Part shown: one piece after another, positions 5,661 through 59,989 of the stretch
Numbering within the stretch: position 1 is the stretch's first letter
Layout: each line of letters starts with the position of its first letter
Assembly: GCF_044704955.1 (NCBI RefSeq)
Contig: NC_091994.1
Location: 40,052,001 to 40,116,000, forward strand
DNA length: 64,000 nt
From: Pristiophorus japonicus
Taxonomy: Eukaryota
Reading direction: 5' to 3'
The notes under the pieces: generated by a model
The model's input: the letters and a program-made list of their open reading frames with translations, nothing else
The model's database searches: none
What the model was told of the DNA's origin: nothing
Position numbers and translations under genes: made by a program

Positions 5661-5919
5661 TGGAGTGTTGTGCATTGCTCTGGTCCATTAAATGTATGAT
5701 AAGTACAATGGTGCACCACAGAGGGCGCTGTGGTGGGAGACCTGAAAGTACCTGCACGAGGCAATATAAAAGGCTGCCCACCACACCTGTGGAGCACTCT
5801 GGAGCTGTTCAATAAAGGACTAAGTTCACAGCAGTGAGATCAACACCAGACCGTGTGGAGTCAGTGATTTCTACATACACCACATTGGCGACAAGGAAGC
5901 GGACGGATTCCACGCAACC

Positions 5920-7153
5920 ATGGCTACTCTGGGCTCGCTAAAGGATTTTACCATGGGCAATGATTGGGAGGCCTTTACGGAAAGGCTCGAGTACTACTTC
6001 ACAGCAAACGACCTGACGGGGAGCACGGATGCAATGAGAGAGAAGTGTAAGGCGATATTGCTTTCCAGTTGTGGCGATGAGGTTTACTGTCTTGTCAGGG
6101 ATTTGCTGGCACCCGCGAGCTCCAGGGACAAGTCATATGAGGAGCTGGTCGCACTCATTCGTGATCAGTTGAAACCGAAGGAGAGCATCCTCTCGGCCAG
6201 AAAATGTTTTACCATCACTGCAGACCCGAGGGCCAGGATGTTACCAAATAAGCCGCGGACCTCAGGAGACTCGTGGCGCCGTGTGATTTTAGCGCACACC
6301 TTGACGAGGCGTTGTGGGACATTTTCGTTATGGAGGTTGGCCACGAGGGATTCCTTCACAAGCTGCTAGCCACGGAACTCACAGTCACTATGACAAAGGC
6401 CATCACTATCAGCCGGGCATATATGACCTTGACTTGCAGCATCAAGCAAATGATCCACACAGTCTCAAACCCAGCAGGCACTGTCCACAGGATAGCAGCT
6501 ACCATGGACAAAACTGCAGAACGTGGCTCTGCCCAGGGCAGAGAGCATGGACCTCGGGGTCCTGGAACTCAGTGTCCGCTGAGGGGGTCCAATCAAGCAG
6601 CGTCAGCCATCGGGCTCACCGGTGCAGGTTTGCGGAATATACGTGCAATACTTGCCACCTGAAAGCGTATGTGTAAAAGAAATCGGACTCACCATGTGGC
6701 TGAGGAGATGGGGGTGATCCACTGTTCAGTGAGGAGCAGGCAGAAGAAGATGAGGGGTTGGGACGGTCTACATGCACCGACGATTCGCCCCCAGTAATAA
6801 TGGAAGTAAAAATTGACAGAGTCCCAGTGAGTATGGCAGTGGATACAGGATCGGGTCCGTCGTTGATGAGTCAGAGAACTTTTGAGAAACTGTGGGGTAC
6901 CCCGGCTGCACGACCCAAGCTGGTCCTGGTCACGGCGAAGCTGTGTACCTACACCAAGGAACTGATACCTGTTCTCGGCAGAGCGGATGTGCAGGTATCT
7001 CACGGGGGCGAGACGCACGGTTTACCCTTATGGGTCATTGCAGGCGATGGGCCGATGCTCCTCGGCAGAAGATGGATGGGAAAGGTCCGTGCGAGCTGGG
7101 AAGACTTCTTCACTCTCCCACAGACTGCTGCTCCCCGGGTTTCCAAAGGGTAG
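5920..7153 (+). pseudogene. Gypsy gag and aspartic protease, frameshifted
   Basis: MATLGSLKDF...DWEAFTERLEYYFTAND; Cys/His knuckle remnants; VSMAVDTGSGPSLM ... GDGPMLLGRRWM. Confidence 0.88.
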
Positions 7154-7613
7154 CGCCGACCGAGCTGGAGCTGCAGCAGCAGCCCAGAACTCCTGGCCCC
7201 AAGCAATCCTGCAGCCTCAGCCTCCACAGACGAGCAGACCCTGGAAGAACAGGTTTGCAGGTCAGCCTCCACAGATGAGCAGACCCTGGAAGAACAAAGT
7301 TACAGCTGCGGGCCTACTGCTGGCGTGCGGGCTGGCGGGGCGTTGCGGGCAAGAAGCAGGAGGCCCATCGATGGCCGGCGGATCCGGGGGACCCACGTAG
7401 CGGAACAGTCGGGCGGCGGCAGCGGCCGCGATGGTGGCGGCCACGGCGGCCGCAGGAGAGGTGGCCGCGGTGGGAGCGGAGGCTCTGGCGGCGGCAGGAG
7501 TGACTCAGAGGGACGTGAGGCAGAGTGGCGGATGCGGCAGCAAGCACGGAGCGACTCACTGTGACTGATCGAGTCCAGGGAGCCACTGCTGCAAGTGGGA
7601 TTGATCGAGGCCG

Positions 7614-7854
7614 TTTTGCTTTTACACTATGTGCAGGTCCAGTCAACTCCCTCCAGTATGCTCTAGCTCGATCTCTGGCAATAACCATGGCAATAGTTGG
7701 TCCAGAACTCATGAATGCTGTTAAACTGAAGAATGGTGAACCTGGATCGGAGAACGATCTCTTCGATTTCCTCCGCGTTGTCGATGGCGACGGGTTTGAT
7801 CAGGGCCAACGTCCTCTCCACGTACACCTCTGCTGCACACTGTGCTTTCTTCAT
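7614..7854 (-). pseudogene. NME5: Captured intronless fragment of host NME5 (nucleoside diphosphate kinase homolog 5)
   Basis: MKKAQCAAEVYVERTLALIKPVAIDNAEEIEEIVLRSRFTILQ joined out of frame to LTAFMSSGPTIAMVIARDRARAYWRELTGPAHSVKAK; collinear with vertebrate NME5 as recalled (YVEKTLAIIKPD...LRSGFTIVQ; LTAYMSSGPLVAMILAR...YWLELLGP). Confidence 0.9.
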
Positions 7855-8596
7855 AACTCATTCACCTCCGCTGGAAATACCGCACCTTTCCTAAAAACAC
7901 TGCAAAATTCCCTTTCCCTCCTTCCTTGTTTCTTCTCCTTTCTAGGCCAGCAGAACACCTAAGATGCCAGCGCCCAACGGAAGCCTCGTGAGAGCCACAA
8001 GATGGCGTCTTAAAAGGGAAATGCTCCCGGGAGTCTTAAAAGGGCCTCACACAACTGCGGTCCCCACATAAAGACTTTTGGACTTTTGTAGGGCTAGAGC
8101 GTGTCTAAGTGTGCCATGTGAATGTAGGATGATGGATTTATGACAAGAAATTATATTTTAATGCTGGGTGGTCACTGTTTAAAATAATGGACATGAATTG
8201 CGAATTACGACAAGAGTTAATATTTCAATGCTGAATGGTCACTGTGTTTAAATTCAGGGCCGTGGATCCATGACTAACATTACCAATGGGCTAATGTGTT
8301 TTTCGATTTATTGGATTCAAGCAATGGCTTTTTGAACTGGGGCGGGGGGGTGGGGGCGCGGCAGTGATGTTGTGTATTGCTCTGGTACATTAAATGTATG
8401 ATAAGTACAATGGTGCACCACAGAGGGCGCTGTGGTGGGAGACCTGAAAGTACCTGCACGAGGCAGTATAAAAGGCTGCACACCACATCTGTGGAGCACA
8501 CTGGAACTGTTCAATAAAGGACTACGGTCACAGCAGTGAGATCAACACCAGACCGTGTGGAGTCAGTGATTTGTGTGCTACATACACCACATGGAG

Positions 8597-11444: not shown

Positions 11445-13684
11445 TCATGGGGGAAGCATTGGGCTTCCCACTGCATACAGCAGTGCCCAGCTTTCATAAG
11501 AACATAAGAAATAGGAGCAGGAGTAGGCCATTTGGCACCTCGAGCTTGCTCCACCATTTAATACGATCATGGCTGATCCGATCATGAACTCAGGTCCACT
11601 TCCCCGCCCGCTTCCCATAACCCCCTTATCGGTTAAGAAACTGTCTACCTCTGTCTTAAATTTATTCAATGACTGAGCTTCCACAGCTCTCTGAGGCAGC
11701 AAATTCCACAGATTTACAACCCTCTGAGAGAAAAAATTACTCCTCATCTCAGTTTTAAATGGGAGACCCCTTATTCTTCTGAATTACAATGAGTAGAGGC
11801 CCAACCTACGCAACCTTTCCTCATAAGTCAACCCCCACATCTCCGGAATCAACCTAGTGAACCTTCTCTGAACTGCCTCCAAAGCAAGTATTTCGTAAAT
11901 ATGGAAACCAAAACTGCAAGCTGTATTCCAGGTGTGGCCTTACCAATACCCTATATAGCTGTAGCATGACTTCACTGCTTTTATACTCCATCCCCTTTGC
12001 AATAAAGGCCAAGATTCCATTGGCCTTCCTGATCACTTGCTGTCCCTGCATACTAACCTTATGTGTTTCATTCATTTCCTGATCCTTGCCCATAACCTGC
12101 CATGCGGGCACTAGAAGTTCCAACGGGTCTTCTACCTTCTCTCTCTCCGCCTCTACTTCCCGTGGTTTTGACCTAGAGGGACCCCCATGTCCTGGTTTTT
12201 CTTTTCTTGGGAACTTGCACTCCTTGCTCCAGTGTCCCATTCTCCCACAACTAAAGCACGCCTAGGATCTGTTCACATTGCCCCCCTCCTGCTTCCATTC
12301 TATTCTACCATCCACGCTTCCCTTCATCTCGTGCACTTTTCTCTTCTATCTATTCTCTTCCCCCCCGGTTGGATTTAAAAGCCAGAGTCAGTTTCTTTAA
12401 CACGCCTGGCTCTGTATTATTAACGTCCTCGGGGTCAAACCATGATTCCGCCCTCGCCCTGATTCGTGGAGAGCTGTTAGCCACTAGAGTCTTGAACCAA
12501 TGATTCCTGGGAGCCCCTAACAAATGTGCTCGGGTTAGATATCCCCCCATCGCTTTCAGATACACGGGCCATAACCTGTGTCTGCAAATGCATCCGGAGC
12601 CTCGCCAGCCAGCTGTCTGGTCTGCTCGACCTGCAAGAATGGGCTGCCTTGGCTATGTCCCAGCGCCATTAAAATTTCGACCGTTACCCCATCCAGAGTA
12701 CCCTCTCCTAACTTAGTGGCTGCCGACAAACCCTGGTCCAGCTTCCCATCTAGGGAGAACAGTATCATCTTTCTCACTTCATCGTCGTCACAATTATTGA
12801 TCCCCCCTATCTGCTCTACATAGGCAAAATGACCAGAGGCATCCCGTCCATGCTTCAGTTTCAGCACACTGGTCATCATTTCCTGCAACTGGAGGGATGT
12901 ATATGGGAGCACATAATCACTCTGCAATGGTCCCTCACCACCGCCTTGTGGGAGTGGATCGAACTTTTGCTGTCGCAGGGGGCACATCGGTCCCGTGATC
13001 CTGGTACTTTGGGAGCCGGCCGACCCTCACTATACCCATCATCGGGCTCCTTTTCCTCCTCTTCATCCCAGTCTACCCCAAATGCCCCTCGTGCCATGAG
13101 ACAAGCCTTACCCCGGCCCCAGATAATGCTAGGGTTAACTTAGGGATTTTTTCATTACAGGGCCAGTGATTGGCCTCTTCATGTAGCCTGTTTATGGCTA
13201 CCCTGTCTGCCACCTTTATACCTTTTAACTGCCCTCAGCCTTGTCAGTTCCTATTTCCTTTCTCACGCTGAGCCTGACACTGCCTTCTACTTTCGGTGGC
13301 CTGACATTGCAGGTACTTTATCATGTTTCTAGCCGTTTCTTCCTGCGCTTTCCTCTCCTGCCTTTCAATGCTAAATCTGCTGCCAGCCAGTTCGCTACGG
13401 CCTCTCTCACTGCTGCCCTACTTTCTGATTCCTGTTTCTCTTTTTCTAAACGCTCAATTTGCTCCGTCAGTATCTGAATTTGTTTCTTCACACATATTAA
13501 CCAAATCGCCTTTTCCTTCGATTTCTTATGTTTGCTACTCCCCGTCCACTCTTAATGCTTTCTCATATGGACAGTCAGCGTATAACACTTCTAACACCCA
13601 GTGCTCAGAAATGTTTACTTTTCCAAATACATACGAGGATATCCTATCCTCCATCGCAGGTTTCTTGCTCTTAACCCTGTCCAT
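11445..13684 (-). pseudogene. gag: ERV gag remnant (interrupted by CR1)
   Basis: ATG at 13684 just after the PBS; charged coiled-coil-like segment; capsid-like ORFs 12350-12987; zinc knuckle CFSCGRMGHWSKEC at ~12215-12260. Confidence 0.82.
11495..12072 (-). mobile_element. CR1 3' fragment inserted at the end of ERV gag
   Basis: cataagaacataagaa tail; VIRKANGILAFIAKGMEYKS...LVRPHLEY; internal deletion near 11777. Confidence 0.9.
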
Positions 13685-21870: not shown

Positions 21871-22599
21871 AGAAAGTGAGTTGTCAGGTGACTGAGGAGT
21901 TCAATGCGGGACAGGTGGGGCAGACAGTGGTTGAAGGAACAGGTGGTTGGGGAGCCTGGGCTGAAGCTCCTTCTGCTGCCTACGCTCGCTTTCTGTTTGT
22001 TCTCGGTGATCGTACTCAAAGTGCTCAGTGTCCTCCTGGATGCTCTTCCTCCACTTTGGGTGGTCTTTGGCCAGGGATTCCCAGGTGTCGGTGGGGATGT
22101 TACACTTTGTCAAGGAGGCTTTGAGGTTGTCCTTGAAGCGTTTCCTCTGCCCACCTGGGGCTCTCTTGCCGTGTTGGAGCTCCGCGTAGAGCACTTGCTT
22201 TGGGAGTCTCGTGTCTTGCGGACAATGTGGCCTGCCCAACGGAGCTGATTGAGTGTGGTCAATGCTTCGATGCTGGAGATGTTGGTCTGATCGAGAACAC
22301 TGATGTTGGTGCATCTGTCCTGCCGATGGATTTGCAGGATCTTGCGGAGGCAGCGCTGGTGGTACTTCTCCAGCGCTTTGCGGTGTTTGCTGTATATAGT
22401 CCATATAGAAGGGCGGTTATAACTACTGCCCTGTGGACCTTGAGCTTGGTGCTGGGTTTGAGGTCCTGGTCTACAAACACTCTCTTCCTCAGGTGACCGA
22501 AGGCAGTGTTGGACCTTGTCGATATCTGCCCTTGCTGACAGTAGGCTCCAGAGATATAGAAAATGGTCTATGTTGCCCAAGGCATTATCGTGGATTTTA

Positions 22600-23492
22600 A
22601 TAGAAACATAGAAACATAGAAAATCATTCCCAGTACCCCTTTCCTGCTTTCTCTCCATACCCCTTGATCCCTTTAGCCATAAGGGCCATATCTAACTCCC
22701 TCTTGAATATATCTACCGAACTGGCATCAACAACTCTCTGCGGTAGGGAATTCCACAGGTTAACAACTCTCTGAGTGAAGAAGTTTCTCCTTATCTCAGT
22801 CCTAAATGGCTTACCCCTTATCCTTAGATTATGTCCCCTGGTTCTGGACTTCCCCAACATCGGGAACATTCTTCCTGCATCTAACCTGTCCAGTCCCATC
22901 AGAATTTTATATGTTTCTATGAGATCCCCTCTCATCCTTCTAAACTCCAGTGAATACAGGCCCAGTCCTGCCATCTCGGGAATCAGTCTGGTGAACCTTC
23001 GCTGCACTCCCTCAATAGCAAGAACGTCCTTCCTCAGATTAGGAGACCAAAACTGAACACAATATTCCAGGTGAGGCCTCACCAAGGCCCTGTACAACTG
23101 CAGTAAGACCTCCCTGCTCCTATACTCAAATCCCCTCGCTATGAAGGCCAACATGCCATTTGCCTTCTTCACTGACTGCTGTACCTGCATGCCAACCTTC
23201 AATGACTGATGTACCATGACACCCAGGTCTCGTTGCACCTCCCCTTTTCCTAATCTGCCACCATTCAGATAATATTCTGCCTCCGTGTTTTTACAACCAA
23301 AGTGGATAACTTCACATTTATCCACATTATACTGCATCTGCCATGCGTTTGCCGACTCACCTAACCTGTCCAAGTCACCCTGTAGCCTCTTAGCATCATC
23401 CTCACAGCTCACACCGCCACCCAGCTTTGTGTCATCTGCAAACTTGGAGACATTACACTCAATTCCCTCATCCAAATCATTAATCTATATTG
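22600..23492 (-). mobile_element. CR1 LINE 3' fragment nested in RTE
   Basis: 283-aa ORF with SKFADDTKL ... [13 protein letters not shown]; (atagaaac)n tail. Confidence 0.93.
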
Positions 23493-26198
23493 CAATAATC
23501 GGGGGTCAGTGCTGTGTGGCGGGATAAGGTTGATAGAGGACCTTTGTCTTACGGACGTGTAGCGCAGGGCATAGGCCTCAGTGAAGGTGTTGACAATGGC
23601 TTGGAGTTCGGCCTCCAAGTGTGCGTAGACGCAAACGTCGTCTGCATACTGTAGTTCAATGACAGAGGATGGGACGACCTTGGGTCTGGCCTGGAGGCGG
23701 CGGAGGTTGAACAGATTCCCATCTGTTCTATAATTTTGCTCCAGTCCAACAGAGAGTTTGCTAAGGGTGAGTTGTAGCATTGCAGCAAGGAAGATCGAAA
23801 AAAGCATTGGTGTAATGCCGCAGCCCTGCTTGACCCCGGTCTGGATGTGGATTGGGTCTGTGGTGGATCCATTCATCCGGATCATGGCTTGCATGTCATT
23901 GTGGGGCAGATGAAGGATGATGACAAACTTTTGAGGGCAGCCGAATCGGAGGAGGACGCTCCATAATCCCTCACGGTTGACAGTGTCAAAGGCCTTTGTG
24001 AGATCAAAGGCGGCCATGTACAAGGGTTGGTGCTGTTCCCTGCATTTCTCTTGTAGTTGTTGCGCGATGAAGATCATGTCTGTTGTACTCCTCAGTGAAC
24101 GGAATCCACATTGTGACTCTGGGAGGAGCTCTTCAGTCACAGGGTGAAGACAGTTGAGGAGGATTCTTGCGATGACTTTCCCAGTGGCTGACAGCAGGGA
24201 GATTCCTCTGTAGTTACCGCAGTCGGACCTGTCCCCTTTTTTGAAGATGGTCATGATTACGGCGTCCCTGAGATCTCCTGGCATGCTCTCCTCCTTCCAG
24301 ATAAGAGAAATTAAATCATCTATTCGTGCCAAAAATGCTTTTCCGCCATGCTTTAGTGCTTCAGCGGGGATTCCATCTGCTCTTGTTGCTTTATTATTCT
24401 TCAGCTGACGGATGGCCTTTTCTACCTCGTGCCAGGCTGGAGTTGTGCTGAGATGATGGTGGGTAGAATACTGAAGAATGGAGTCGAGGACACTCACGTC
24501 GAAGACAGAGTCTCGGTGGAGGAGATCTTCGAAATGTTCCTTCCAGCGGGCACTGACTGCCTCTCTGTCCTTGAAGAGTACCTCAGCATTCTTGGCCAGC
24601 AGTGAGGTAGGACCTTGGGTGCTTGGGCCTTAGGTGGACTTGACTAAACTGAAGAATCCACGAACTGCTGGATCTCCTGTGTTTTCTCCACTCACTATCT
24701 GTTTTTTAGGTTGTGGGTTTTTTGTTGGACCTCAGCCTTCAGCCGTCTGTAGAGCTGCTTTCTTGCTCTCGTGTTGGGTTGCTGTTTTAAGTTCAGAAAT
24801 GTCTTGCGGCTAATTAGCTCCTGGTTAATTCTCGTCACACCAGTTTAGGTGTTTCCTGGTCGAGTGACCGAGCGTCTCTTCGCAGGTGCTGGTTATGGAG
24901 ACCTTGAGGGCAGACCAGGCGCTGTGGGCACTCTGCATCTCTGGGTTATCGAGGGTCGCCAGGTTGGCAATGAGGTGCTGGCTGAATAGGGCTTTCTTAG
25001 CAGGGTCTTTGAGTGCCGCTGCGTTGATTTTCCTGCAGCATTGTTTTTGTTGCCGTCGCTGTTTTGGGGCTACATTGATGTTAATGATGGAGTGGATTAG
25101 ATGATGGTCCGTCCAGCAGTCGTCGGCTCTTGTCATGGTGCGGGTGATGTCCTTGCGGTCCTTCGCTTGGACGATAACGTAGTCGAGCAGATACCAGTGC
25201 TTGACACGAGTGTGTTGCCACGATGCCTTGTGCTTGTCTCGTTGATGGAACAAAGTGTTGGTGATGACAAGGCCATGTTCTGGGCATTTTGTCAGGAGTG
25301 GGGGTACTGCTGGAGTTGGTTTTCCCTACCCCCTCTCTGCCGATCATGCCTCCCCAGAGGTCTGTGTTCTTTCCGACTCTGGCGTTGAAATCGCCAAGAA
25401 GGATCAGTTTGTCATCCGTTGGGACTCGGGACAAGGATTGTTCGAGGCTGGAGTAGAATTTCTCTTTGGTCTCATCTGTAACGTCCAGTGTTGGGGTGTA
25501 CGCGCTGAAGACCATAGCGCACTGATTACGGGCTAGAGTGAGTCGAAGAGTCATGAGACGTTCGCTTATCCCGCAAGGGGAGTCTGTGAGACGGCGCACC
25601 AGCTCATTCTTGATGGCGAAACCTACTCCATGGAGAGGGCGTTCTTCTGGTTTGCCTTTCCAGAAGAAGGTGCAACCACCACCTTGCTCTTAGAGCTGGC
25701 CTTCCCCTGCCCGTCGGGTCTTGCTTAGGGCAGCGATGTCAAAGTTGAAGCGTCTGAGCTCCCGGGCAACAATTTTTTTCCCCCTTTTACTTCACACAGT
25801 GGGCTTGCAGTCCGTGTTGAAGATATCTTTGTTGTAATGCTACCTGGGGAAATATTTGCACTATCGGGTCTCACAGGTAATCATTCTCCATTGTCCCTGC
25901 CCAGCTGACTGACTCCAGCCACAATAATGTTTAAGGTTGGCATCAAATCATCTGATAAGCATTCCTCACTAATCTCACGTAAGCATCACTCGCCCATACC
26001 AACACAAAACACACCTCATCCAATACAACACTGCCTTCTCAGAATTTTTATTTACTGGCTTAAATTGCATAAAATGTTGACATTTATTGTTTAAAAATAC
26101 TTTTCTACTTCTCAAACCTCATGGTTGTTATTTGTAAATTTTCTATCTGATTTGTCACAGTACACTTATTGGTACACAGGGTAAATAAACTTCCATGA

Positions 26199-34154: not shown

Positions 34155-35292
34155 GATTGGCAACATTATCCGAAAACACAATGTCAAGTTCCACATGTAC
34201 AGTGCTGACACAGCACTACCTCACCATCGCTTCTCTCAAACCCGACAAGCGAGGTGTTGGCTCTGATTTGTTACACTGTTTGTCCGACATCCAGTACTGG
34301 ATAAGCAGAAATTTCTTCCATCTAAATATTGGGAAGAACGCAGCCATTACTTCGGTCCTCTCCAGAAACTCTGTTGCCTAGCCACTGTCTCCATCCCTCT
34401 CCCTGGCAACTGTCTGAGGTTGAACCGGACCTTTCGCAAACCTGGTCTTGTATTTGACCCTGAGATCAGCTTCCGATCACATTTACGCTCCATTGCCAAG
34501 ACCGCCTACTTCCAGCTCTCTAACATTGCCCGACTCCACCCCTGCCTCAACTCTTCAGCTGCTGAAACCCTCATCCATGCCTTTATTACCTCTAAACTTG
34601 ACTATTCCAATGCTCTCATGGCCGGCCTCCCCTCTTCCACCATACATAAACTTGAGCTCATCCAAAAACTCTGCTGCCCGTATCCTAACTCACACCAAGA
34701 CCAGATTCACCCATCAGCCCTGTGCTCACTGACCTGCATTGGCTCCCGGTCCGGCAACACCTCGATTGTAAAATTCTTATCCTTGTTTTCAAATGCTTCC
34801 CTGGCCTCGTTCCTCAATATCTCTGTAACCTTCCCCGGCCCCACAACCAATGTTCCCTTTAAGCTGTGCAGTCGCTAGCTGTCTGGAGGTTCTGCGCAGC
34901 CAGCCCACTGGCTTTTCAATGGAAAACTGTGCATGCACGGGAATTTGAATAGGTTGCGCAGCCCGTTAAAGGAGTCGTACACCCCCAAAAGATTGAAGGG
35001 AACATTGCCTATAACTCTCCGAAATCTCTGCGCTCCACCAACTCTGGCCTATTGCGTATCCCAATTTTAATTACTTCACCATTGGCCGCCGTGCCTTCAG
35101 CTGCCTAGGCCCTAAGCATTGGAATTTCCTCCATAAACCTTCCAAATCTCTACCTCTCTCTCCTCCTTTAAAACGCTCTTTAAAACCTACCTTTTTGACC
35201 AAGCTTTTGGTCATCTGTCCTAATACCTCTTTATGTGGCTCGGTGTCAGATTTTATTTGTTAATGCTCCTGTGAACCACCTTGGGATGTTTT
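34155..35292 (+). mobile_element. L2 LINE 3' fragment with hAT MITE insert
   Basis: LSDIQYWISRNFFHLNIGK, AETLIHAFITSKLDYSNAL. Confidence 0.88.
34848..35007. mobile_element. hAT-like MITE (160 bp)
   Basis: TIR CAATGTTCCCTT / AAGGGAACATTG; 8-bp TSD cccacaac / cctataac. Confidence 0.75.
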
Positions 35293-35895
35293 AGTATACA
35301 GCAGACACCTCAAAACGCTGGAGAAATATCACCAGCTTTGCCTCCGCAAGATCCGACAAATCCATTGGCAGGACAGACGCACCAACGTCAGTGTTCTCGC
35401 TCAGGCCAACATCCCCAGCATCGAAGCATTGACCACGCTCGATCAGCTCCGCTGGACGGGCCACATTGTCCGCATGCCTGATGCGAGACTCCCAAAACAA
35501 GCGCTCTACTTGGAACTCCGACACGGCAAGCGAGCTCCAGGTGGGCAGAGGAAATGTTTCAAGGACACCCTCAAAGCCTCCTTGATGAAGTGCAACATCC
35601 CGCTGACACCTGGGAATCCCTGGCCCAAGACCGCCCAAAGTGGAGGAAAAGCATCCGGGAAGGCGCTGAACACCTTGAGTCTCATCGCCGAGAGCATGCA
35701 GAAACCAAGCGCAGGCAGTGGAAGGTGCGTGCGGCAAACCAGACTCCCCACCCACCCTTTCCTTCAACCACTGTCTGCCCCACCTGTGACAGAGACTGTA
35801 GGTCCTACATTGGACTCTTCACTCACCTGAGAACTCATTTTTAATGTGGAAGCAGGTCATCCTCGACCCCGAGGGACTGTCCAACAGAAGAAGAA
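35293..35895 (+). mobile_element. RTE LINE 3' fragment
   Basis: QLRWTGHIVRMPDARLPKQALY...GGQRKCFKDTLK; CPTCDRDC...HLRTH zinc finger. Confidence 0.9.
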
Positions 35896-43020: not shown

Positions 43021-43770
43021 TTTCTTTATCTGTTATTCTTTAGCCGATTCTTGTTGGGAGTGAACTGAAACTTACCTTTTGACTTTTTAAGAATTTCACA
43101 TATTTTGACCTTTATAAAGACTCGAGGTGAGAAATTCAGTATCGTCCCATTTGCGGGCGGTGGCAGTCGGGAGGCGCAAGACATGACGGCAGGCGCTGAA
43201 GTCTCACCCCTCTCCAGAAATTCGGGTTACCGCCCCTGGAAGCAAGTGCAGCGCTAAATCAAGCGTTGCATTTCCTTCCTGGGGCGCTAACGCAACGCGC
43301 GCCTCAACAGCGCTTCACACTGGGCCGCGCAGCACTGGGTGAAGGACCCACGCTGCCGACTCTGCAGAAGAAAAAGGACCTACCTGGACCACTGGGGAGT
43401 GGGGGTGCTGCGCGATCAGTCCCACACTCGAGCAGAGAGCCAGGCTAAGCGATCATGGCCAGGACCCAATGAAGAAACCAGATCAGGAGAGGCAACAAGC
43501 AGGTAAGGGGGCAAAATTGCCCCACGCCCCGATTGGGGTCGGTAACGTTCCGGGGCCGGGACTTTTAGTGGGATTGCCCTTACTGCCCTTGTTAGGGCCA
43601 GAGGGGGTGGGGGGGCCCAGAGTGCTACTGAGACTCTGAGGGAAGCGTTATGCAGATGCTCCGCATAGCGCTGACGAGCTTCAACACCCCTCCCCTTCGA
43701 TTAAAGGGGAGGGCAGCTGTGTACTCTACAAGGCTCTCATGGCCACCACTGGGCCACCAGGGCGGCGAGT

Positions 43771-46700
43771 TGTTATGTATGGAGAAAGAGTCAGACTGAA
43801 CACTGTGAGCTCAAAGTAAAGTGTGATCTTAGTCTTTTATTGCAGGTCTTCAGAGTGCCTCTCCAACGTGTGAGGCTTCCTTAAATACCTGTGCTCCCAA
43901 GGGATTATGGGACCCCTTGGGACTCCAGAGGATGAGCCCTCTGGTGCCTGTACAGAGTAAATACAAGTCCACAAATATAACAACATTCCCTCCCCCCCGC
44001 CACCTGCCAAAGTCAATAGTGTAACTATTTACAATGTGAGTCGATCTGGGGCCCTTCTTGCCCTGGTTGATCGTCTCGGTGTGAAAGCTGGTATTGTTGA
44101 ATCATTTGTTGGGCCCTCGCTGGGCTGCTGTGCAGCTGGCCTTGCTGGGCTGCCTGATGTGTTGGGTCCTCTGGGCTGCTGTGGACGATGGGTTCTGCTT
44201 CGTGGTCAGCCATGATGCCGGTTGCCACTAGTGTGTATGTTGGGGGATCAAAAAAGGTAGGGTCCAAGATGGGTTGCTCAGGATAGTCCATAAATCTGAG
44301 TTTGATTTGGTCCAAGTGTTTCCGGTGAATGAGTCCATTTGAAAGTTTAACCCGAAACACCCTGCTCCCCTCTTTGGCCACGACAGTGCCGGGAAGCCAA
44401 TTGGGACCTTGTCCATAATTCAATACAAATACAGGATCATTAATTTCAATCTCACGTGACACATTTGCGCTATCATGGTATGTACTTTGTTGAAGCCGCC
44501 TGCTCTCTACCTGTTCATGTAGATCAGGGTGAACTAACGAGAGCCTTGTCTTAAGTGTTCTTTTGATGAGCAGTTCAGCAGGTAGGATCCCAGTGAGCGA
44601 GTGGGGTCTCGTGCGGTAGCTAAGCAGGACTCGGGATAGGCGAGTCTGCAGTGAGCCTTCAGTTACCCTCTTCAAGCCTTGCTTGATGGTTTGCGCTGCT
44701 CTCACTGCCTGACCATTGGACGCTGGTTTAAATGGGGCAGATGTGACATGTTTGATCCTGTTACGGGTCATGGATTCTTTGAACTCAGCACTGGTAAAAC
44801 ATGGCCCGTTGTTGCTCACCAGGACATTGGGTAAGCCGTGAGTGACAAACATGGCCCGCAGGCTTTCAGTAGTGGTTAGCCGACATTATCTAACATTCAA
44901 TCCACTTGGAATATGCGTCTACAACCATAAGAAACATTTTACCCAAAAACGAGCCTGCATAGTTGACGTGTACCCTAGACCACGGTTTGGAGGGCCAAGA
45001 CCATAAACTTAATGGCACCTCCCTGGGTACATTGCTTATCTGTGAGCATGTATTACATCTGTGAACGCAGGACTCTAAGTCCGCATCGATAGCGGGCCAC
45101 CACACGTGGGATCTGGCTATCGCTTTCATCATTACGATGCCTGGGTGGGTACTGTGGAGGTCATTGATGAAGGTGTCTCTGCCCTTCTTGGGGACCACTA
45201 CTCGATTGCCCCACAGAAGGCAGTCTGCTTGTATAGACATTTCATCTTTGAGCCGCTGGAACGGCTTAATCACTTCCTGTATTTCCACTGGGACACTGGA
45301 CCAGCTCCCGTGAAGCACACAGCTTTTGACTAGAGATAATAAGGGGTCCTGGCTTGTCCAGGTTTTGATCTGCCGGGCAGTGATAGGTGATTGCTCACTC
45401 TCAAATGCTTCCATAACCATGGCTAGATCTGCGGGCTGCGCCATTTCCAACCCAGTGGTGGGCAATGGCAGCCTACTGAGAGCATCGGCGCAGTTTTCTG
45501 TGCCTGGCCTGTGGCGGATGGCGTAGTTGTATGCGGACAACGTGAGTGCCCATCTCTGGATGCGGGCCGATGCATTGGTATTTATCCCTTTACTCTCGGG
45601 AAACAGGAATATAAGTGGCTTATGGTCAGTTTCCAATTCAAATTTTAGCCTAAACAGGTATTAATGCATTTTCTTTACTCTATAGACACACGCTAATGCT
45701 TCTTTCTCAATCATGCTGTAGGCTCTCTCAGCCTTAGACAGACTCCTGAATGCATAAGCAACTGGTTGCAGTTTCCCAGAATCATTAACTTGTTGCAATA
45801 CACACCCGACGCCATATGATGATACATCACATGCTAGTACCAAACGCTTACATGGATCATACAACACAAGCAATTTGTTTGAGCATAACAATTTTCTCGC
45901 TTTTACAAAGGCATTTTCTTTGCTTTTGCCCCAAACCCATTCATCCCCTTTTCATAGTAAAACATGCAATGGTTCTAACAGTGTGCTAAGACCCGGTAAG
46001 AAGTTACCAAAGTAGTTCAGGAGTCCCAGAAATGACCGCAGCTCTGTCACGTTCTGTGGCCTTGGTGCGTTCTCGACTGCCTCCGTCTTCACGTTGGTGG
46101 GACTGATGCCATCCCAAGAACTCCACTTCAGATGCCAGGAAAACACACTTCGAGTGTTTTATCCTGAGCCCCACGTGGTTGAGTCGACTAAGAACCTCCT
46201 CCAGGTGCTGCAGATGCTGTGTTCTGACCTGTGACCAAGATGTCATCCTGGAAGACCACAGTGTGCAGGACCGACTTCAGTAAGCTTTCCATGTTTCTCT
46301 GGAATATCGCCACCGCTGATTGGATTCCAAACGGGCATCTGTGATAAACAAAAAGACCTTTGTACGTGTTGATGCAGGTGAGGGCCTTCGATGATTCCTC
46401 CAGTTCCTGCGTCATGTAAGCTGAAGTCAGATCGAGCTTCGTGAACGTCTTTCTTCCCGTCAGCGTTGCAAAGAGGTCGTCAGCCTTTGGTAGTGAGTAT
46501 TGGTCCTGCAGGGAGAAACGATTGATAGTTACTTTGTAATCGCCACAGATTCTGATGGTGCCATCTCCCGTGAGGACAGGAACGATCGGACTGGCTCACT
46601 CGTTGAACTCGATCGGTGAAATGATGCCCTCTCTTTGCAGCCAGTCTAGCTCGATCTCTACTCTTTCTCTCATCATATACGGCACTGCTCTCGCCTTGTG

Positions 46701-48324
46701 ATGGATGGGTCGCGCCCCCGGAATTAGGTGGATCTGCACTTTTGCTCCTTGGAATTTCCCGATGCCTGGTTCGAACAGTGAAGGAAATTTATTTAAGACC
46801 TGGGCACACGAAATGTCGTCAGTGGGCGATAGCGCTCGGAAGTCGTCCCAGTTCCAGCGTATCTTTCCCAGCCAGCTCCTGCTGAGCAGCGTGGGACCAT
46901 CGCCCAGTACCACCCAGAGTGGTAGCTTGTGCACCGCTCCATCGTAGGAGACCCTTACGGTAACACAACACTGCCGATTACAGGAATCAGTTCTTTTGTG
47001 TAAGTTTTTAGTTTCGTGTGAACTGGAGTTAAGACTGGCCTTGAGGCCTTGTTGCACCACGAACTTTCGAAAGTCTTTTTGCCCATGATGGACTGGCTTG
47101 TGCCCGTGTCCAGCTCCATTGACACCGGGAGTCCATTTAGTTCAACATTCAGCATTATCGGGGGACAATTCGTGGCGAATGTGTGCACCCGATGTGCCTC
47201 TGCCTCCTCGGTCTGAGGCTCTGGTTCGTCGTGATCCTCCATGGATCTGTCCTCCTCTTCAACATGGTGGTTTGCAGGTTTAACAGGATTTGCAGCTCGC
47301 CTGCACACTTATTAGAGGTGTCCCATTGTTCCACACACCTTGCAAATGTACCCTTTGAATCAGCATGAATGAAAACGATGATCACCCCTGCAGCGCCAAC
47401 AAGGTGTTAATGGCGTTGCTTTCATCACCCTTGATGGTGGACTCTGAGACATCTGCGGACGTGCGGCTGGTGGCATGTGTGACCTGCCCTGTACGTTACA
47501 ATTCGAAAACAACATCACTTTGTTCGCAGTACTTGTAGCAGCACTTGTGTGCTGAGAGGTTTGCTTCGTATTGTCACTGGTGGCAATGAATGCCTGGGAT
47601 ATCGCTATGGCCTTACTCAAGGTTGGGGTCTCTACAGTCAAAAGTTTGCGAAGTATGGTTTCGTGGCCAATGCCAAGTACGAAAAAGTCTTTGAGCATGT
47701 GCTCCAAATGTCCTTCAAATTTGCAATGGCCTGGAAGGCATCTTAACTCGGCGACATAACTCGCCACTTCCTGGCCTTCAGACCTTTTGTATGTCCGGTA
47801 CCTCGCCATCGGAACACTTTCCTTTGGGTTCAAATGCTTTTGGACCAGTGTGCACAAATTGTCGTATGATTTTTCCGTGAGTTTCGCTGGAGTGAGCAGA
47901 TTCTTCATGAGGCCATACGTTGGTGCCCCACAGACGGTGAGGAGGATCTCCCTTTATTTGGCGGCATTCTCTTCCCCATCTAGCTCATTGGCTACAAAGT
48001 ATTGGTCGAGTCGCTCCACAAAAGTTTCCCAATCATCTCCCTCTGAGAATTTCTCCAGGATGCCCACTGTTCCCTGCATCTCTGGGTTCGCTATCTGTAT
48101 CTCGTCGCCAGTTGTTATGTATGGAGAAAGAGTCAGATTGAACACTGTGAGCTCAAAGTAAAGTGTGACCTTAGTCTTTTATTGCAGGTCTCCAGAGTGC
48201 CTCTCCGACCTGTGAGGCCTCCTTAAATACCTGTGCTCCCAAGGGATTATGGGATCCCTTGGGAGTCCAGGGGATGAGCCCTCTGGTGGCTGTACAGAGT
48301 AAATACAAGTTCACATATATAACA
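43771..48324 (-). mobile_element. Full-length decayed Gypsy (Mag-like) LTR retrotransposon
   Basis: 212-bp LTRs 43771-43982 and 48113-48324, 5-bp TSD CGAGT, PBS TGGCGACGAG, PPT; gag, ELDTG protease, FQDD RT, RNase H, HHCC/DDE integrase fragments. Confidence 0.95.
44025..48079 (-). pseudogene. Gypsy gag-pol with multiple stops and frameshifts
   Basis: DDWETFVERLDQYF; MELDTG; VVFQDDILV; LACDVSSYGVG; HPGIVMMKAIARSHVWWP; PFKPASNGQA. Confidence 0.92.
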
Positions 48325-52980: not shown

Positions 52981-53906
52981 AACGGCTGAGAAATTCTTTT
53001 TATTGAAAAGTGCTTGTTTCCGATAATTTCCTGCCTCTTTAAGGTAATTAAGCCAAATTGACAATAGAAATAAATCCAGATATCATATACTATGGAACAA
53101 CAACTAAAATACCAATGATGCCAAGTATTACCCCAGTTTCCGAATGATGTTATTTTAATGCCGGTGTTATTTTCACCCACTGGTTTTCACCAGCATTAAA
53201 TAACGGCAATCGGAAAGTCCAGATTTATAGTTTGAGATCCAAAACCAATGGGTCAAGAGAGGATCAAACCAGACTGTGATGCCCTACACAGTTAGATAGT
53301 TTGTCGCCCCTCAGTATCGAGGGCCACACATGAAGAATAGGGGCTAAAAATTTGGAGCGCCCCGTTTGGGGGCTGTAACACTCACGGGGCGCGCGACTTT
53401 GCGCCAGACGCAGAGGTCTCGCCTCTCGCGCAAAATTGGGGTTATCGCCCCCGCAAGGAAGTGGATAACTAAATGAAGCGCTCCACTTCCTTTCTGGGGC
53501 AGTAGCAGGGCGGACGCCTCGGGAATGGGGTGCACGCCTGAGCAGCGCTACGCACTGGGCTCTGTAACGCTGCCACATAGATGGGGCTCTTCTCTGACTT
53601 AAAGGGAAGGCCACAAACTGCATATTCTGCAGATTTTAAACACACCTACCTGGACCACCGGGGAGCGGGGGTGCCACGTGATCAGCCCGGCACTCAAGCG
53701 GCACAGACCCCACAGTGGTGAACAAAAAAATGATGCCATTTTTTTTGATGACCAGCCGGCCACCTCCCCTTTAACTTTCGCCCCGTGAGCGGCCAGCTGC
53801 CCAGTACCCATCCCCTGAAGCTATTGCTGTCACGGCCTGGCGCCGCTTCAAGGGCCGATACCCAATTTAGGGTCTGGGGTGCTAATGGGCCGCTGCGCAC
53901 GGCAAT

Positions 53907-56900
53907 TGTGGTGTCCTTACACCTTACTATAGAATCACACGAGGCATGTACTGCAGACAAGGTCACTACGTGACCTGAACCTTTATTTCCAGGACCAAGG
54001 AGTGCTGACCCTGCGTGGGACCTCCCTTTATATACCCGGATGACCAGGTGAGGAGTGTCTCTCACAAGTTCACCCCTTGTGGTCAAGGTGTGCATTACTC
54101 AGGTGCATACAGTGTACAGTGTTGTTAGATAAAGGTTACAGTTATGTGAAGGTTACAAACATGACATCACCTCCCCCCAACGTCTTTGGGTCAAAGATTG
54201 AGTCTTTCAGGCGGTCGATGCTCTCTCGTGGAGCGCCGTAGTTGGGGCTCTGGTGGTTGGGCCTTGGCATGCGTCTCTGTTGCCTGAGGTGATTCCGGCC
54301 TGTCCGGGCTGGCCGCAGGGACTGTGCATGCTGGTGAATGTCCTTGTTGCTCGTTCACTGGCAGTGGTGTGGGTGACATCTCATGATCTTCCTCAGGGTT
54401 CCTCAGTGTCCATGCTGAACCTTTTCTTTACTTGGTCCAAATGCTTGCGGCATATCTGCCCATTGTTAAGTCTGACCACTATGACCTTATTTCCCTCTTT
54501 GCCAATTACAGTACCCTCAAGCCACTTGGGTCCCAAAGCATGATTGAGAACGAATACAGGGTCATCGATTTCTATGCATCTCCCCACGGAGCTGCAATCA
54601 TGGCACTCGATTTGGAACTGGCGCTTGCCCTCAACAATGTCTGACAGGGCTTGGGTGAATGAGGGACAGCCGCGTTTTAAGCATGAGTTTCATGAGTATT
54701 TCCGCGGGCGGGACTCCCGTGAGTGAATGCGGGCGGGACCTATCGGCCAGCAGGAGGCGCGATAGGCGGTACTGAAGGAAGGGTCCTTGAATCCGGGGCA
54801 TGCCCTGTTTTATGATTTGAACCGCACATTCCGCCTGGCCATTGGAAGCCGGCTTGAACAGTGCTGTCCTGACATGTTTGATACCATTACCCGACATAAA
54901 TTCCTGGAATTCATAGCTAGTGAAACACAGGCCATTGTCGCTAACCAGGATGTCCGGCAAGCCATGGGTCGCAAAGACCGTACGCAGACTCTCCACGGTG
55001 GTGGATGTCATGCACGAATTCAATATGATGCACTCGATCCATTTTGAGTATGCATCGACAACAATCAGGAACATTTTTCCCATTAATAGGCCCGCATAGT
55101 CTACGTGAATTCGTGGCCATGGCCTGGTGGGCCAGGGCCATGGGCTGAGTGGGGCCTCCCTGGGGGCATTTCCCAGCTGAGCACACGTCGTGCACCTGCG
55201 AACCCAATGTTCCAGGTCTGAGTCAATTCCTGGCCACCATACATGTGACCGGGCAATGGCCTTCATTAGCAAGATGCCTGGGTGCTCGCTGTGGAGTTCC
55301 CTGATGAATGCTTCCCTTCCTTTCTGGGGCATGACTACCCGGCTGCCCCATAGCAGGCAGTCTGCTTGGATGGAGAGCTCGTCCATCCGTCTGTGAAACG
55401 GCCTGACCTCCTCGGGACACGCTCTGTGTGCGGGCGCCCAATCCCCCATCAGGACACATTTCTTTATCAGGGATAGGAGGGTATCTCTGTTGGTCCAGAT
55501 TTTGATCTGGCGGGCTGTGATGGGGGAGCCTGCGGTGTCGAAAGCCTCAACGGCCATGACCATCTCCGCGCTTTGCTCCGATGCCCCCTTGGTGGTCGCC
55601 AGTGGGAGTCTGCTTAGCGCATCAGTGCAATTTTCGGTGCCTGGCTGGTGCCGTATGGTGTAGTCATACGCAGCCAGCGTGAGGGCCCATCGTTGTATGC
55701 GAGCTGACGCATTGGCATTGACAGGCTTGCTGTCGAACAACAGGGATGTTAACGGTTTGTGGTCCGTTTCTAACTCGAACATTCTGCCGAAAAGGTACTG
55801 GTGCATCTTTTTCGCCCCATGGACACATGTGAGTGCTTCCTTTTCAACCATCCCATATCCCCATTCTGCCTGGGAGAGCGACCTGGAGGCATAAGCCACA
55901 GGTTGGAGTTGGCCCTCATCATTACTCTGCTGCAACACACACCCAGCCCCATAGGATGATGCATCACATGTTAAAAGCAGTTTTTTACAGGGGTTGTACA
56001 AGGTCAACAGCTTGTTCGAACAAAGCAGATTCCGCGCCCGATTGAAAGCCCGTTCTTGACAGTCCCCCCAAAACCATTCACAACCCTTACGCAGGAGCAC
56101 GTGCAGCGGCTCCAACAATGTGCTTAAGTTCGGCAGAAAGTTCCCGAAGTAGTTCAATAGTCCCAGAAATGACCGCAACTCCGATGTGTTGCCGGGCCTG
56201 GGCACACGACGGATCGCCTCCATTTTGGATTCGGTAGGCCGGATCCGGTCTGCGGCAACCCTCCTGCCCAAAAATTCGACCTCTGGGGCCAAAAACACAC
56301 ACTTGGACTTCTTTAGTCGCAAGCCTATCCGGTCCAGGCGGCGTAGCACCTCCTCCAGGTTGTGGAGGTGTTCCTCGGTGTCTCGACCCGTGATTAGGAT
56401 GTCATCTTGGAATACGATTGTTCAAGGAATGGATTTAAGCAAGCTTTCCATGTTCCTCTGGAAGATAGCGGCCGCTGAACGAATGCCAAACGGACACCTG
56501 TTGTAAACAAATAGCCACCTGTTGTAAACAAATAGCCACTTGTGCGTAGTGATGGTGGTCAGAAGCTTGGATTCTTCAGCCAGTTCCTGAGTCATGTAGG
56601 CTGAAGTGAGGTCCAACTTGGTGAACAGCTTGCCAAAAAGATCCTCCGCTCTTGGAAGCGGGTATTGGTCCTGCAGTGACACTTGTTTGATGGCGGCCTT
56701 GTAGTCGCCACAAATGCTGACCGAGCCATCCGCTTTAAGGACAGGAACGATGGGGCTTGCCCAGTCACCGAATTCAACAGGCGAAATTATGCCCTCTCTT
56801 AGCAGCCTGTCCAACTCACTCTCAATTCTCTCACGCATCACATATGGCACGGCTCTGGCTTTGTGGTGCACTGGTCTGGCGTCCGTGGTGATGCGTATCA

Positions 56901-58666
56901 CTACTTTGGTGCCCTTAAAAGTCCCGACACCTGGTTGAAAAAGTGGCTCGAATTTCTGTAGGACCTGTGAGCATGAACTTCGCTCCACAGATGAAATGGC
57001 ATGCACATCCCCCCATTTCCAGTTCATCTCGGCTAACCAGCTCCTCCCCAAGAGCGCGGGACCATTCCCCGGGACAATCCAGAGTGGAAGTCGGTTCTCC
57101 GATCCATTGTGTGTGATCACCAAGTTTGCACTGCCTAGTACTGGGATGATCTCTCTGGTGTACGTCCGTAACTGCGTGTCAATGCGTTCCAGTTTGGGCC
57201 TGTTAGCTTTGAGTGGCCATAGTTTTTCAAATTGTTGGGCAGTGATAAGTGATTGGCTGGCTCCTGTGTCCAGTACCGGGGTGCCATTTAATAGAACTTT
57301 CATCATCATAGGTGGCGTTTTGGTATACAAGCTGTGGACGTCTGCCACATGAACCTACTGGACTTCAGCATCCATAGCTTTGCTCCAAGCATCACCCTGC
57401 CTTGCAGACCCCTCGTCTGGTTCCTCTGCCTCATAAACTAGCCTCGCTACGGACTTTCTGCACGTGCTGGCCAGATGTCCACTGAAGTTACAGTTTCTGC
57501 AGATAAATTGCTGAAACCTACAGGTTTTCGCAGCATATCTGCCATCGCACCTCCAGCATGAGCTGAGATTGTTGTGAACAAAGGAACTGTTAACACGCAT
57601 TGCACTCTGATTGTCTCTTTGATTACTCCTGAGCACTCTGTTGGTGAGTGTCAATGGTCCGATCCCAGGACGCATTGTCCCTTGTGATGGCGTGAATTGC
57701 CGATCCCCCTGCCATTGTCTCTGTTGCTGGCCCACCCTAGAGTCTGTTGCTGCCCGGGTGGTGTTGAATTACCCTTGCCTGCCTGCGAGGTTCTGAATCT
57801 CGTTTACAATGTTAACTCCCTGGTCCATCGCCATGTTGGAACCAGGGCTGCGCGCGTAAATTTTCTTGGTCTCCTTTTCCCCTGCCATGAAGGTCTGAGC
57901 TATCAACGTTGCCCTTTCCAAAGTCAAGTCCTTGGTCTCAATAAGCTTCCTGAAAATCCCGGCATGACCATTGCCCTCAATGAAGAAATCCCTTAACATC
58001 TCCCCCCTGCAGGCGTCTGTGAACTTACAGAGGCTGGCCAAGTTTTGTCCCTCCCGACGCTGGTGTGTGTAGAAGGTGTGTGTAGAACCGGTGCTGGGCC
58101 ATGTGTACACTATTCGCCGGTTTGAGGTGCTCACTGATCAGAGTGCTGAGCTCTTCAAAGGACTTGTCCGCCGACTTCTCGGGTGCGAGCAGGTCTTTCA
58201 TCAGCGCATACGTCTTGGATCCACAGCTGGTCAGTAGATGCGCCCTTCGCTTGCCAGCCGCTTCCTCTCCCAGCCAGTCCTTCATGACAAAGCTCTGCTG
58301 GAGCCTCTCAACGAAATTGTCCCAGTCCTCACCAACACAGTACTGTTCCTCTGTGCTACCGGTGGCCATCCTCGTGGGTCGTTGATTCCCGTTTCTCATC
58401 ACCAAATGTGGTGTCCTTATACCTTACTATAGAATCACACGAGGCATGTACTGCAGACAAGGTCACTATGTGACTTGAACCTTTATTCCCAGGACCAAGA
58501 AGTGTTGACCCTGCGTGGGATCTCCCTTTATATACCTGGATGACCAGGTGAGGAGTGTCTCCCACAAGTTCACCCCCTGTGGTCAAGGTGTGCATTACTC
58601 GGGTATGTACAGTGTACAGTGTTATTACATAAAGGTTGCAGTTATGTGAAGGTTACAAACATGACA
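53907..58666 (-). mobile_element. Full-length decayed Gypsy (Mag-like) LTR retrotransposon, second family
   Basis: 260-bp LTRs 53907-54166 and 58407-58666, 5-bp TSD GCAAT, PBS TGGTGATGAG (CpG-decayed TGGCGACGAG), PPT. Confidence 0.95.
54191..58369 (-). pseudogene. Gypsy gag-pol (308-aa PR-RT and 572-aa RT-RH-IN fragments)
   Basis: EDWDNFVERL; CWRC..CRNC knuckles; LDTGAS; WASPIVPVLK; TCDASSYG; HPGI..ARSHVWWP; VSDNG; PASNGQAE. Confidence 0.93.
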
Positions 58667-59989
58667 GCAATGACGTCATGTTCTTTTGGCGCAGGAGATT
58701 GGGGCGCAATGCCACAGTGCCGCCATTAAACTCCCGCCGAATTTAACGGGAGTCGTTAGCGGTGCTGCGTCCAGTCGCAAAGTTGTTTGCGCCCCGTTAG
58801 CGGCCCCCGGGGGTATTAACGGGAGGTGCAAAAGATCCGAATTTCTCCCCGTGGTATTTGGGAACGATATTGAGCACAAGAATCAGTATGTTCAGAGAGG
58901 AAAGGGAACCAAACTGGGGCGGGCGGAGATTAACAATGGTATATTTAGTTTACATACAGTTAATTTAAAAACTTGTGCAAGCAATTTTTGAAGAACATAG
59001 CTAAATTGTAAGTGTAAAATAGCATCCTGCAAGAACCTGGATGTGTTGCCTGAGGCTAAACTATAAATTAGATTAAGTCCCTTCTGGGTCTAAACCACCA
59101 GTGCAATCGTGCTGTTGAGTTATTTTGCTGCGTTAAGTCAGCATTGTATTTTTAAAAGCTCAGAAGAGACATAAGGGATCCAAGCTGTGTAATATTTCAG
59201 TCGTGAGTGATCCTTAACTCTCAGGCAACTAAGTCGTGACTGAGTAGTGTAAGTCAACTGCAGCAGCAGTGACATGTAAATTGATATTACATATTTTGTG
59301 TACACCAGTTCTTTTATTTAATTAACTCTTCGATTACCAACAGGTTCAAGGATACTCCAATCTTCCTGGACTAACTAGTTTTGTTCATGTTTCACTGTGG
59401 TACTAAAACAAACACTAATTTTACAGTAACAAATCTACTCAAACATCAGAAATATTAACTGTACATAACTAAAGTATACAATGAAAACAATTTTAACTGA
59501 AGTGCAATATTTAGTACAGCTTATCCAGTTCCCTTAATTCTCTCTTCTTTCCTATCGACTCTCTGTGTCTTTACATTTTTAACTCCAATGTTACTTTTTT
59601 GAACTTTGCTTTCTAATTGTTTTATTGTTCTTTTAATTACCCAGTTTCTTCTTTGGGCTCTCGATGTCTATTTTGGAGCTGGAGGGGACTACAGATGTAA
59701 CACGGAGGAACTCTGGAAAAATTGATATTTATTTTTTCCCTTTGATGACAATGACAAGAGCAGGAATAATGCTACACAGGGCAAAGGCAAGTTCATTCAT
59801 TGTTCAAGACAAGTGACTGGCTGTATTCACAACAGCTTGGGTTGGACCAATGTGTTTCTGTCCTTGTTATGATTGTATTCCACAATTCAAGACCCCCAGT
59901 GATTCCGTGGATAAACAGTAAGAGAGTCCCAGCCAGGTGAAATCCCTGAGCTTTCCGGAGTTACCCAATTTCAGCTGGCATGGTATTAA

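Follow-up and report, generated by a model that had tools for sequence, protein, structure and literature searches.

A spliced NME5 sequence inserted antisense in a pol-less gag-protease Gypsy family of Pristiophorus japonicus, with evidence for serial capture of host mRNAs

The window analysed is a stretch of 64,000 nucleotides from Pristiophorus japonicus (contig NC_091994.1, positions 40,052,001 to 40,116,000), and coordinates without a contig name are positions within it. It contains a short Gypsy-type LTR element on the plus strand, bounded in the sequence by target site duplications (TSD) of TGGAG at 5661–5665 and 8592–8596. Sequence comparison places the 5' LTR at 5666–5884, with a TATA-like motif at 5765 and AATAAA at 5811, and the 3' LTR at 8368–8591; the two have TG..CA ends and are 4.1% divergent. 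The primer-binding site (PBS) at 5886–5897 is for tRNA-Ser(GCT), with one mismatch in this copy. Its complement is a tRNA 3' end with 186 occurrences in the genome, two of the four loci tested being called as tRNA-Ser(GCT). A G-rich polypurine tract (PPT) is present at 8339–8361. The gag-like coding region, at 5920–6790, opens at the ATG at 5920 and has several broken frames; it was recognised by amino acid comparison with neighbouring Gypsy elements, to which it is 36–52% identical. An aspartic protease domain follows at 6803–7069 (PF13650, E 3e-4, below the Pfam cut-off) and aligns with the proteases of the neighbours at 47–57% amino acid identity. The element had been described as intact, which holds for the LTRs, PBS, PPT and TSD but not for the reading frame, which is split. 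The absence of reverse transcriptase (RT), RNase H (RH) and integrase (IN), also described, was borne out by ORF and Pfam searches, which found none of them between the LTRs.

The neighbours are two decayed, pol-bearing Gypsy elements on the minus strand at 43765–48324 and 53903–58669, with TSDs of CGAGT and GCAAT and Ser-type PBS. Both have Gypsy pol domains by Pfam match, and the pol frames of both are broken. Other repeat remnants in the window lie at 12556–13026, 22110–25689, 34267–35830 and 61248–62329, comprising one further gag-like frame and several LINE-like RT/endonuclease frames, all with putative family labels.

Downstream of the protease, the element carries 294 nt of NME5 sequence in antisense orientation (7906–7613), including 5'UTR. 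The parent gene is located at C4:67821451–67846210. Represented in the cargo are a piece of the 5'UTR (7855–7906, parent from C4:67821451), the first coding exon from the ATG to the exact splice donor (7726–7854, parent C4:67821517–67821645) and an internal part of the second coding exon (7613–7725, 96% identical to C4:67831695–67831807), all on the minus strand. The first block, 7906–7726, stops at the donor CAG/GT, and the second, 7725–7613, runs from an internal AG of the next exon to 17 nt short of the end of that exon. Relative to the parent, the cargo lacks the 9,972-nt intron and 77 exon bases, such that the second block begins 77 nt into the exon and is out of frame. The proposal that an ATG-initiated NME5 N-terminus of 43 codons lies on this strand is upheld at 7854–7726, where 40 of the 43 codons are identical to a shark NME5. 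The best PDB match of both blocks is NME5 (E 1.4e-9 and 5.4e-11), and all nine database matches to the cargo are shark NME5. The joining of the two blocks without an intron, which had also been proposed, is confirmed by the fusion of the exact donor to the internal AG.

This internal AG has the best pyrimidine tract (9/12) among the 18 other AGs of the exon, the true acceptor scoring 10/12. An isoform using a cryptic acceptor is therefore judged the likelier origin of the junction than a slip between two CAGs, and either reading would require a spliced sense mRNA. In host NME5 transcript contigs the normal junction is found in all four runs and the cargo junction in none. The 5'UTR of today's NME5 has a 13-nt tandem duplication that is not in the cargo. 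Contigs of two other organisms also have no such duplication, suggesting that the cargo probably keeps an older state of the 5'UTR, from before the duplication.

Processed pseudogenes made by LINEs are marked by the 3' end of the mRNA, a poly(A) and a TSD of 7–20 bp. None of these marks was found around the NME5 cargo, which stops within the second coding exon; a TSD and poly(A) of its own had been named in the preliminary description as signs of a later LINE-mediated retrocopy. No free-standing NME5 retrocopy was found in the assembly, as the 23 exon-2 matches that were scored are the parent and 22 element copies. The skipped 77 nt of the exon are single-copy in the genome, and the sole matches to the downstream exons are the parent and a paralogue. 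The mRNA cap does not account for the second junction by run-off, since host contigs extend from 141 to at least 255 nt past the 5' end of the cargo. The purine tract next to the cargo does not derive from a non-coding NME5 exon further upstream either, since empty copies have it and 130 kb of the parent locus do not. A second NME5-like gene with introns is located at C19:456822–466858 (L046–L047), with 55–63% amino acid identity per exon to the parent. Approximately 230 nt upstream of the NME5 ATG, near C4:67821286 (L035), is a motif that we take to be RFX X-box-like.

The preliminary description held that NME5 had taken the place of pol. This is contradicted by sister copies of the element. 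A search by element flank, in which 40 of 363 candidates were scored, yielded 20 loci outside the NME5 set. Of those fetched, 19 of 20 have neither NME5 nor pol and are continuous across the site, 17 of them at the exact position. In such empty copies the left flank, ending at 7623, is joined directly to the element 3'UTR at 7908 (7908–8338, with a pyrimidine tract at its start). The 11 nt at 7613–7623 (plus strand) are common to the empty element and the antisense NME5, and when one empty copy was compared in both orientations with five NME5 exon stretches, this 11-mer was the sole match of at least 10 nt. At the opposite junction there is 1 nt of homology with one extra base, and nothing is deleted. 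NME5 is thus a pure insertion in the element 3'UTR, with 1–2 nt duplicated, into a family that was already without pol, and it did not replace pol.

No RT, RH or IN was found on the same strand in any of 103 two-LTR copies (among 119 loci), or in any of 30 unselected loci, these being the first 30 of 2,456 exact genome matches to a protease-end motif. An LTR 18-mer has 1,062 exact matches. The two-LTR copies have a median span of 2,833 nt, with four longer than 4 kb. Longer LTR-to-LTR spans on C1 are not autonomous members of the family, one containing a nested opposite-strand Gypsy and one an expanded tandem repeat. At L140 (791–5928), two empty elements form a tandem dimer with a common middle LTR, and L147 and L148, on different contigs, have the same rearranged copy, in which an inverted 7621–7463 segment is joined at 6450.

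The pol position itself is occupied by a GC-rich stretch that is captured CIRBP-B/RBM3-like coding sequence, older than the NME5 capture. In the window copy this is decayed and spans 7225–7612 on the plus strand (tblastn E 1e-20), with an RRM remnant, an RGG tail, the stop codon of the parent at 7566–7568 and the start of the 3'UTR. The best-preserved copies match CIRBP from codon 6 through the stop into approximately 40 nt of 3'UTR, at 82–89% identity. The CIRBP parents are five intronless paralogues clustered at C7:219.41–219.76 Mb (L278–L281, L284), two of which donated cargo. CIRBP was detected in 24 of the 30 unselected loci, and four of the 30 have other filler in its place, without pol or CIRBP. 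Pol loss may therefore predate the CIRBP capture. Where both motifs were found, the protease-CIRBP fusion is in frame at 32 of 37 loci. There is a weak selection signal in the RRM, with pN/pS of 0.47 against 0.72–0.75, and none in the RGG part, with 0.81 against 0.90–0.91. The frame of the CIRBP stop codon is random (12, 12 and 10 of 34), and of 71 loci only one retains the RNP1 block. At L155, L146, L153, L276 and L318 the CIRBP-derived RGG region or the linker beside it has undergone large tandem expansion. Proteins P0011, P0013, P0016, P0019 and P0020 are gene models that start with, or are made of, the protease-CIRBP tail of the element; P0020 couples the tail to a GPR139-like receptor and is an exonised copy or else an artefact of annotation. 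Element copies thus mislead annotation, several 'RBM3-like' or uncharacterised database proteins being pieces of the element.

The NME5 cargo is present in at least 42 copies, 40 among 90 fetched loci and two confirmed later, with an estimate of about 45 in all; 40 of 2,789 candidates were scored in this search. Of the 40 loci, 13 have the full cargo, 8 have a flank deletion, 15 have exon 1 only and 4 have exon 1 with a second cargo. Outside the parent, there are 31 exact matches to an NME5 exon-1 18-mer; of 20 new matches to a one-mismatch exon-1 pattern, the 18 that were fetched include no element copy. The scored exon-2 matches all stop at query base 107–114. In the 24 NME5 copies with both ends clean, all 24 TSDs are distinct, and the two sides agree at five of five positions in 17. 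A non-autonomous family that spread together with its NME5 cargo had been proposed, with a count of copies sharing the cargo at different TSDs as a check, and these numbers bear it out; the NME5 copies have undergone secondary retroposition as non-autonomous elements. Of 39 copies, 4 have private insertions of abundant repeats. Median LTR-LTR distances of 0.040–0.059 across subfamilies indicate an amplification that would be old and roughly contemporaneous in the subfamilies. A gag-protease tree of 72 of the 90 loci (18 with a short backbone were omitted) is star-like with weak support; the NME5 copies form no clade in it and cargo types are ungrouped. The single origin of the NME5 cargo therefore rests on the shared junctions. 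Recombination between co-packaged copies might explain the ungrouped cargo types.

It is very improbable that NME5 replaced pol and was retained for the regulation of the host cilia gene by antisense RNA from the LTR. The plus strand of the LTR does have a TATA-like signal and AATAAA, and the 39 loci tested have between 12 and 146 of 268 21-mers perfectly in common with the parent exons. Against this, empty pol-less copies exist and replacement is refuted, successive deletions in derived subfamilies have reduced the cargo to as little as 23 nt, and the roughly 45 NME5 copies compare with 2,456 protease-motif matches. Selection on the cargo as a protein gives pN/pS of 0.48–1.55 by block, from non-independent counts. 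The NME5 cargo probably travels as a passenger that the 3'UTR can tolerate. Plus-strand LTR transcripts, as previously described, would be antisense to NME5. Unstranded transcript contigs of four runs were compared with 7560–7915 only and none bridges element and cargo, which carries no weight either way.

The gag-protease frame has the mark of purifying selection: its pN/pS is 0.56 for close copies and 0.35 for comparisons with distant copies, as against 0.87–1.31 in shifted frames (CpG excluded), with counts that are not independent across related copies. This difference from the shifted frames suggests that Gag and protease had to be supplied in cis for these lineages to replicate. Of 90 loci, 10 have 440 or more open codons from gag. 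Since the family has no pol, RT and integrase must act in trans. Mobilisation by Mag-type elements like the window pair had been put forward, and the tRNA-Ser(GCT) PBS and 5-bp TSD are indeed common to the element and its two pol-bearing neighbours. The LTRs of the neighbours are essentially unrelated to those of the element, however, with a single 37-nt match at 78%, and gag/protease identity is 24–57%. As these neighbours are distant and their pol frames broken, they were rejected as proven helpers, and no helper element was found for the family.

NME5 is one of at least six host mRNAs that the family appears to have picked up, five further captures in the same part of the element having been identified from their sequences, and the captured pieces have each spread to dozens of places. 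A histone H1 cargo is antisense, has an internal deletion and is 74–93% identical to the H1 genes of the C9 cluster. In the H1 search 40 of 317 candidates were scored, all 25 loci fetched belong to the family, and there are 34 exact matches to the junction. This capture lies approximately 10–20 nt from the NME5 site and is independent of the NME5 capture. It is bounded by a 9-nt direct repeat, of which 8 nt match H1; the single-repeat state of the site is found in 26 copies, and the 10 of these inspected carry another cargo, termed Z. A HARBI1-like domesticated gene is present in sense, with two exons joined GT-AG across 12.7 kb, inserted in the NME5 exon-1-only subfamily with homologies of 2 and 4 nt; L132 and L133 match this cargo weakly and have no element match. 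A C1orf131/FSAF1 cargo, also in sense, has five exon pieces with three exact splice joins and adjoins the H1 cargo. Copies with C1orf131 and H1 recur on small or late-numbered contigs (L306–L313, with L306 amid simple repeats), and some of these may be segmental duplicates. The second CIRBP paralogue is represented with its own 5'UTR, at 89–92% identity in the three loci tested.

Cargo Z (L238–L247) is approximately 400 nt, AT-rich and at the same 3'UTR site, and the 40 scored of 663 candidates are all near full length. Neither cargo Z nor a filler termed V was identified in Pfam, Rfam or the four known parent loci, and one Z frame has no match in PDB. Other post-protease filler, at L290–L297, L300, L339, L342, L346 and L355, resembles GC-rich 5'UTRs; such filler in sister subfamilies possibly represents further captures. 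The empty state has been seen for three events (NME5, H1 and HARBI1-like). In each of these the longer homology is at the 3'-most point of the mRNA, and 1–9 nt of the element are duplicated. No cargo examined has a poly(A) or mRNA 3' end.

On balance it is probable that this decayed element descends from a pol-less gag-protease Gypsy copy that received the antisense, spliced NME5 as a clean insertion when RT switched template onto a co-packaged mRNA, likely from the plus strand, and was then amplified. The family would supply its own Gag and protease, borrow RT and integrase from a Mag-like helper, and package host mRNAs in its particles. For NME5 and H1, a T-rich plus-strand DNA end would pair with an A-rich stretch of the mRNA, copy it toward its 5' end and return to the element template; the junctions of the NME5, H1 and HARBI1-like cases suggest a DNA 3' end primed on mRNA. 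Sense cargoes would arise by the usual minus-strand switch, and each cargo-bearing element would be recopied with its cargo to new sites. Template switching, the route proposed previously, is thus likely in particles, but the ordinary minus-strand switch gives a sense cargo and leaves the orientation unexplained. An antisense cargo would call either for a switch from the plus strand or for an antisense RNA template, the source of which is absent from the assembly.

Several observations stand against this explanation. The junction geometry, with primer-like microhomology, 1–9 nt duplicated and no deletion, fits LINE priming or RNA-templated break repair equally, and replacement of element sequence, the mark of template switching according to Tan et al., is absent. 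Also against it are the 1-nt homology at the second NME5 junction, the tree in which NME5 copies form no clade, the failure to find a helper and the normal junction of all host NME5 contigs. It is nevertheless unlikely that LINE RT or RNA-templated break repair put an internally primed NME5 cDNA into a genomic copy at a T-rich site, which then multiplied. Pure insertion, a T-rich primer strand and either orientation are expected from such an event, the 9-nt direct repeat around the H1 cargo resembles a TSD, and 4 of 39 copies have the private repeat insertions described above. It would nonetheless require that mRNA was captured at least six times in a stretch of a few hundred bases in a single family, each time in a replicating copy. 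None of the examined cargoes has a poly(A) or an mRNA 3' end, just 1–2 nt are duplicated at NME5, and inspection of 40 loci by eye showed no LINE sequence at the site (L246 runs into other sequence). Repeated captures in one small replicating family favour capture in the particle over random genomic insertion.

The plus-strand step would be unneeded if antisense RNA of an earlier, since lost NME5 retrocopy had been packaged and captured by an ordinary minus-strand switch. This uses only the published mechanism, and an 11-nt homology is typical for a return jump. No matching retrocopy exists in the assembly, and an identical two-step accident would be needed again for H1, making this origin quite unlikely. 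Beyond the switch from the plus strand that we prefer, the family might be an mRNA trap. In such a trap, Gag-protease would have gained a cold-inducible RRM/RGG module, particles would package germline mRNAs promiscuously, a plus-strand stall at the pyrimidine tract would prime repeatedly, and antisense NME5 and H1 would feed germline small RNAs against the host genes. This is a speculation to which we give little credence.

The capture process is already published, for animals by Tan et al. 2016 (PMC5131818) and for maize Bs1. The available sections of Tan et al. describe LTR-mediated retrocopies in which a partial spliced mRNA lies inside an LTR element, including the mouse 'Super' retrocopy, a chimera of four genes, and list processed-pseudogene criteria as well (section 5). 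The shark family resembles these cases in the partial spliced host mRNA, here between both LTRs, in junction microsimilarity (here 11 nt at one side and 1 nt with one extra base at the other), in the lack of a poly(A) or LINE-type TSD flanking the cargo, in multi-gene chimeras and in secondary retroposition. The Drosophila cases given there all replaced part of an ORF, whereas the NME5, H1 and HARBI1-like pieces were inserted without loss of the element. The model in section 10 has the nascent minus strand switching to an mRNA, which gives a sense cargo; unlike the products of this model (Fig. 4), two cargoes here are antisense, a contrast drawn by us, as those sections are silent on orientation relative to the LTR and the 'Orientation' column of Table S8 in the supplement appears to give the genomic strand. 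The captures here are also serial in one family, each in dozens of copies, unlike those of Tan et al. in the sections available.

Maize Bs1 likewise carries pieces of three host genes and has been recopied with shared switch points (PMC5131818, PMC13317346). As described in the available parts of these papers, it differs in having 1–5 copies and one chimeric ORF, while the shark family has thousands of copies and a cargo that differs by sublineage. As short, pol-less, gag-coding LTR elements with borrowed enzymes, the plant TR-GAG (Chaparro et al. 2015, PMC4350172) and zebrafish Bik-1/Bik-2 (PMC12067270) are comparable. TR-GAG are below 4 kb with LTR, PBS, PPT and several copies, consistent with the median span here, but are defined, in the part of that paper available, without the protease that the shark family keeps together with a fused host RRM/RGG tail. 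Bik-1/Bik-2 differ in being described as endogenous retroviruses. The tRNA-Ser or Leu PBS, 5-bp TSD and short LTRs are like those of the Mag lineage of Ty3/Gypsy in the Culex table of PMC3286476, a likeness of features, as the shark family has no RT by which phylogeny could place it. In the literature searched, which leaves subscription papers mostly outside it, no report was found of such a case in sharks, of antisense capture by an LTR element, of switching from the plus strand or of captured CIRBP. The shark family differs from the published cases in the pure insertion, the repeated antisense capture, the serial cargoes amplified to dozens and the gag-protease-RRM backbone.

Most known animal cases in which an LTR element captured host mRNA are isolated and low in copy number. 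In this vertebrate family, empty, filled and re-filled states stand alongside the parent genes in the same genome, so that the junctions and the order of events can be followed for at least six captures. The T-rich site, with its two independent antisense captures, points to a second route outside the standard model, either a plus-strand switch or break-primed copying. If the antisense copies give piRNAs, an animal counterpart of the conflict between captured gene and donor gene discussed for maize (PMC13317346, in the part available) would become testable.
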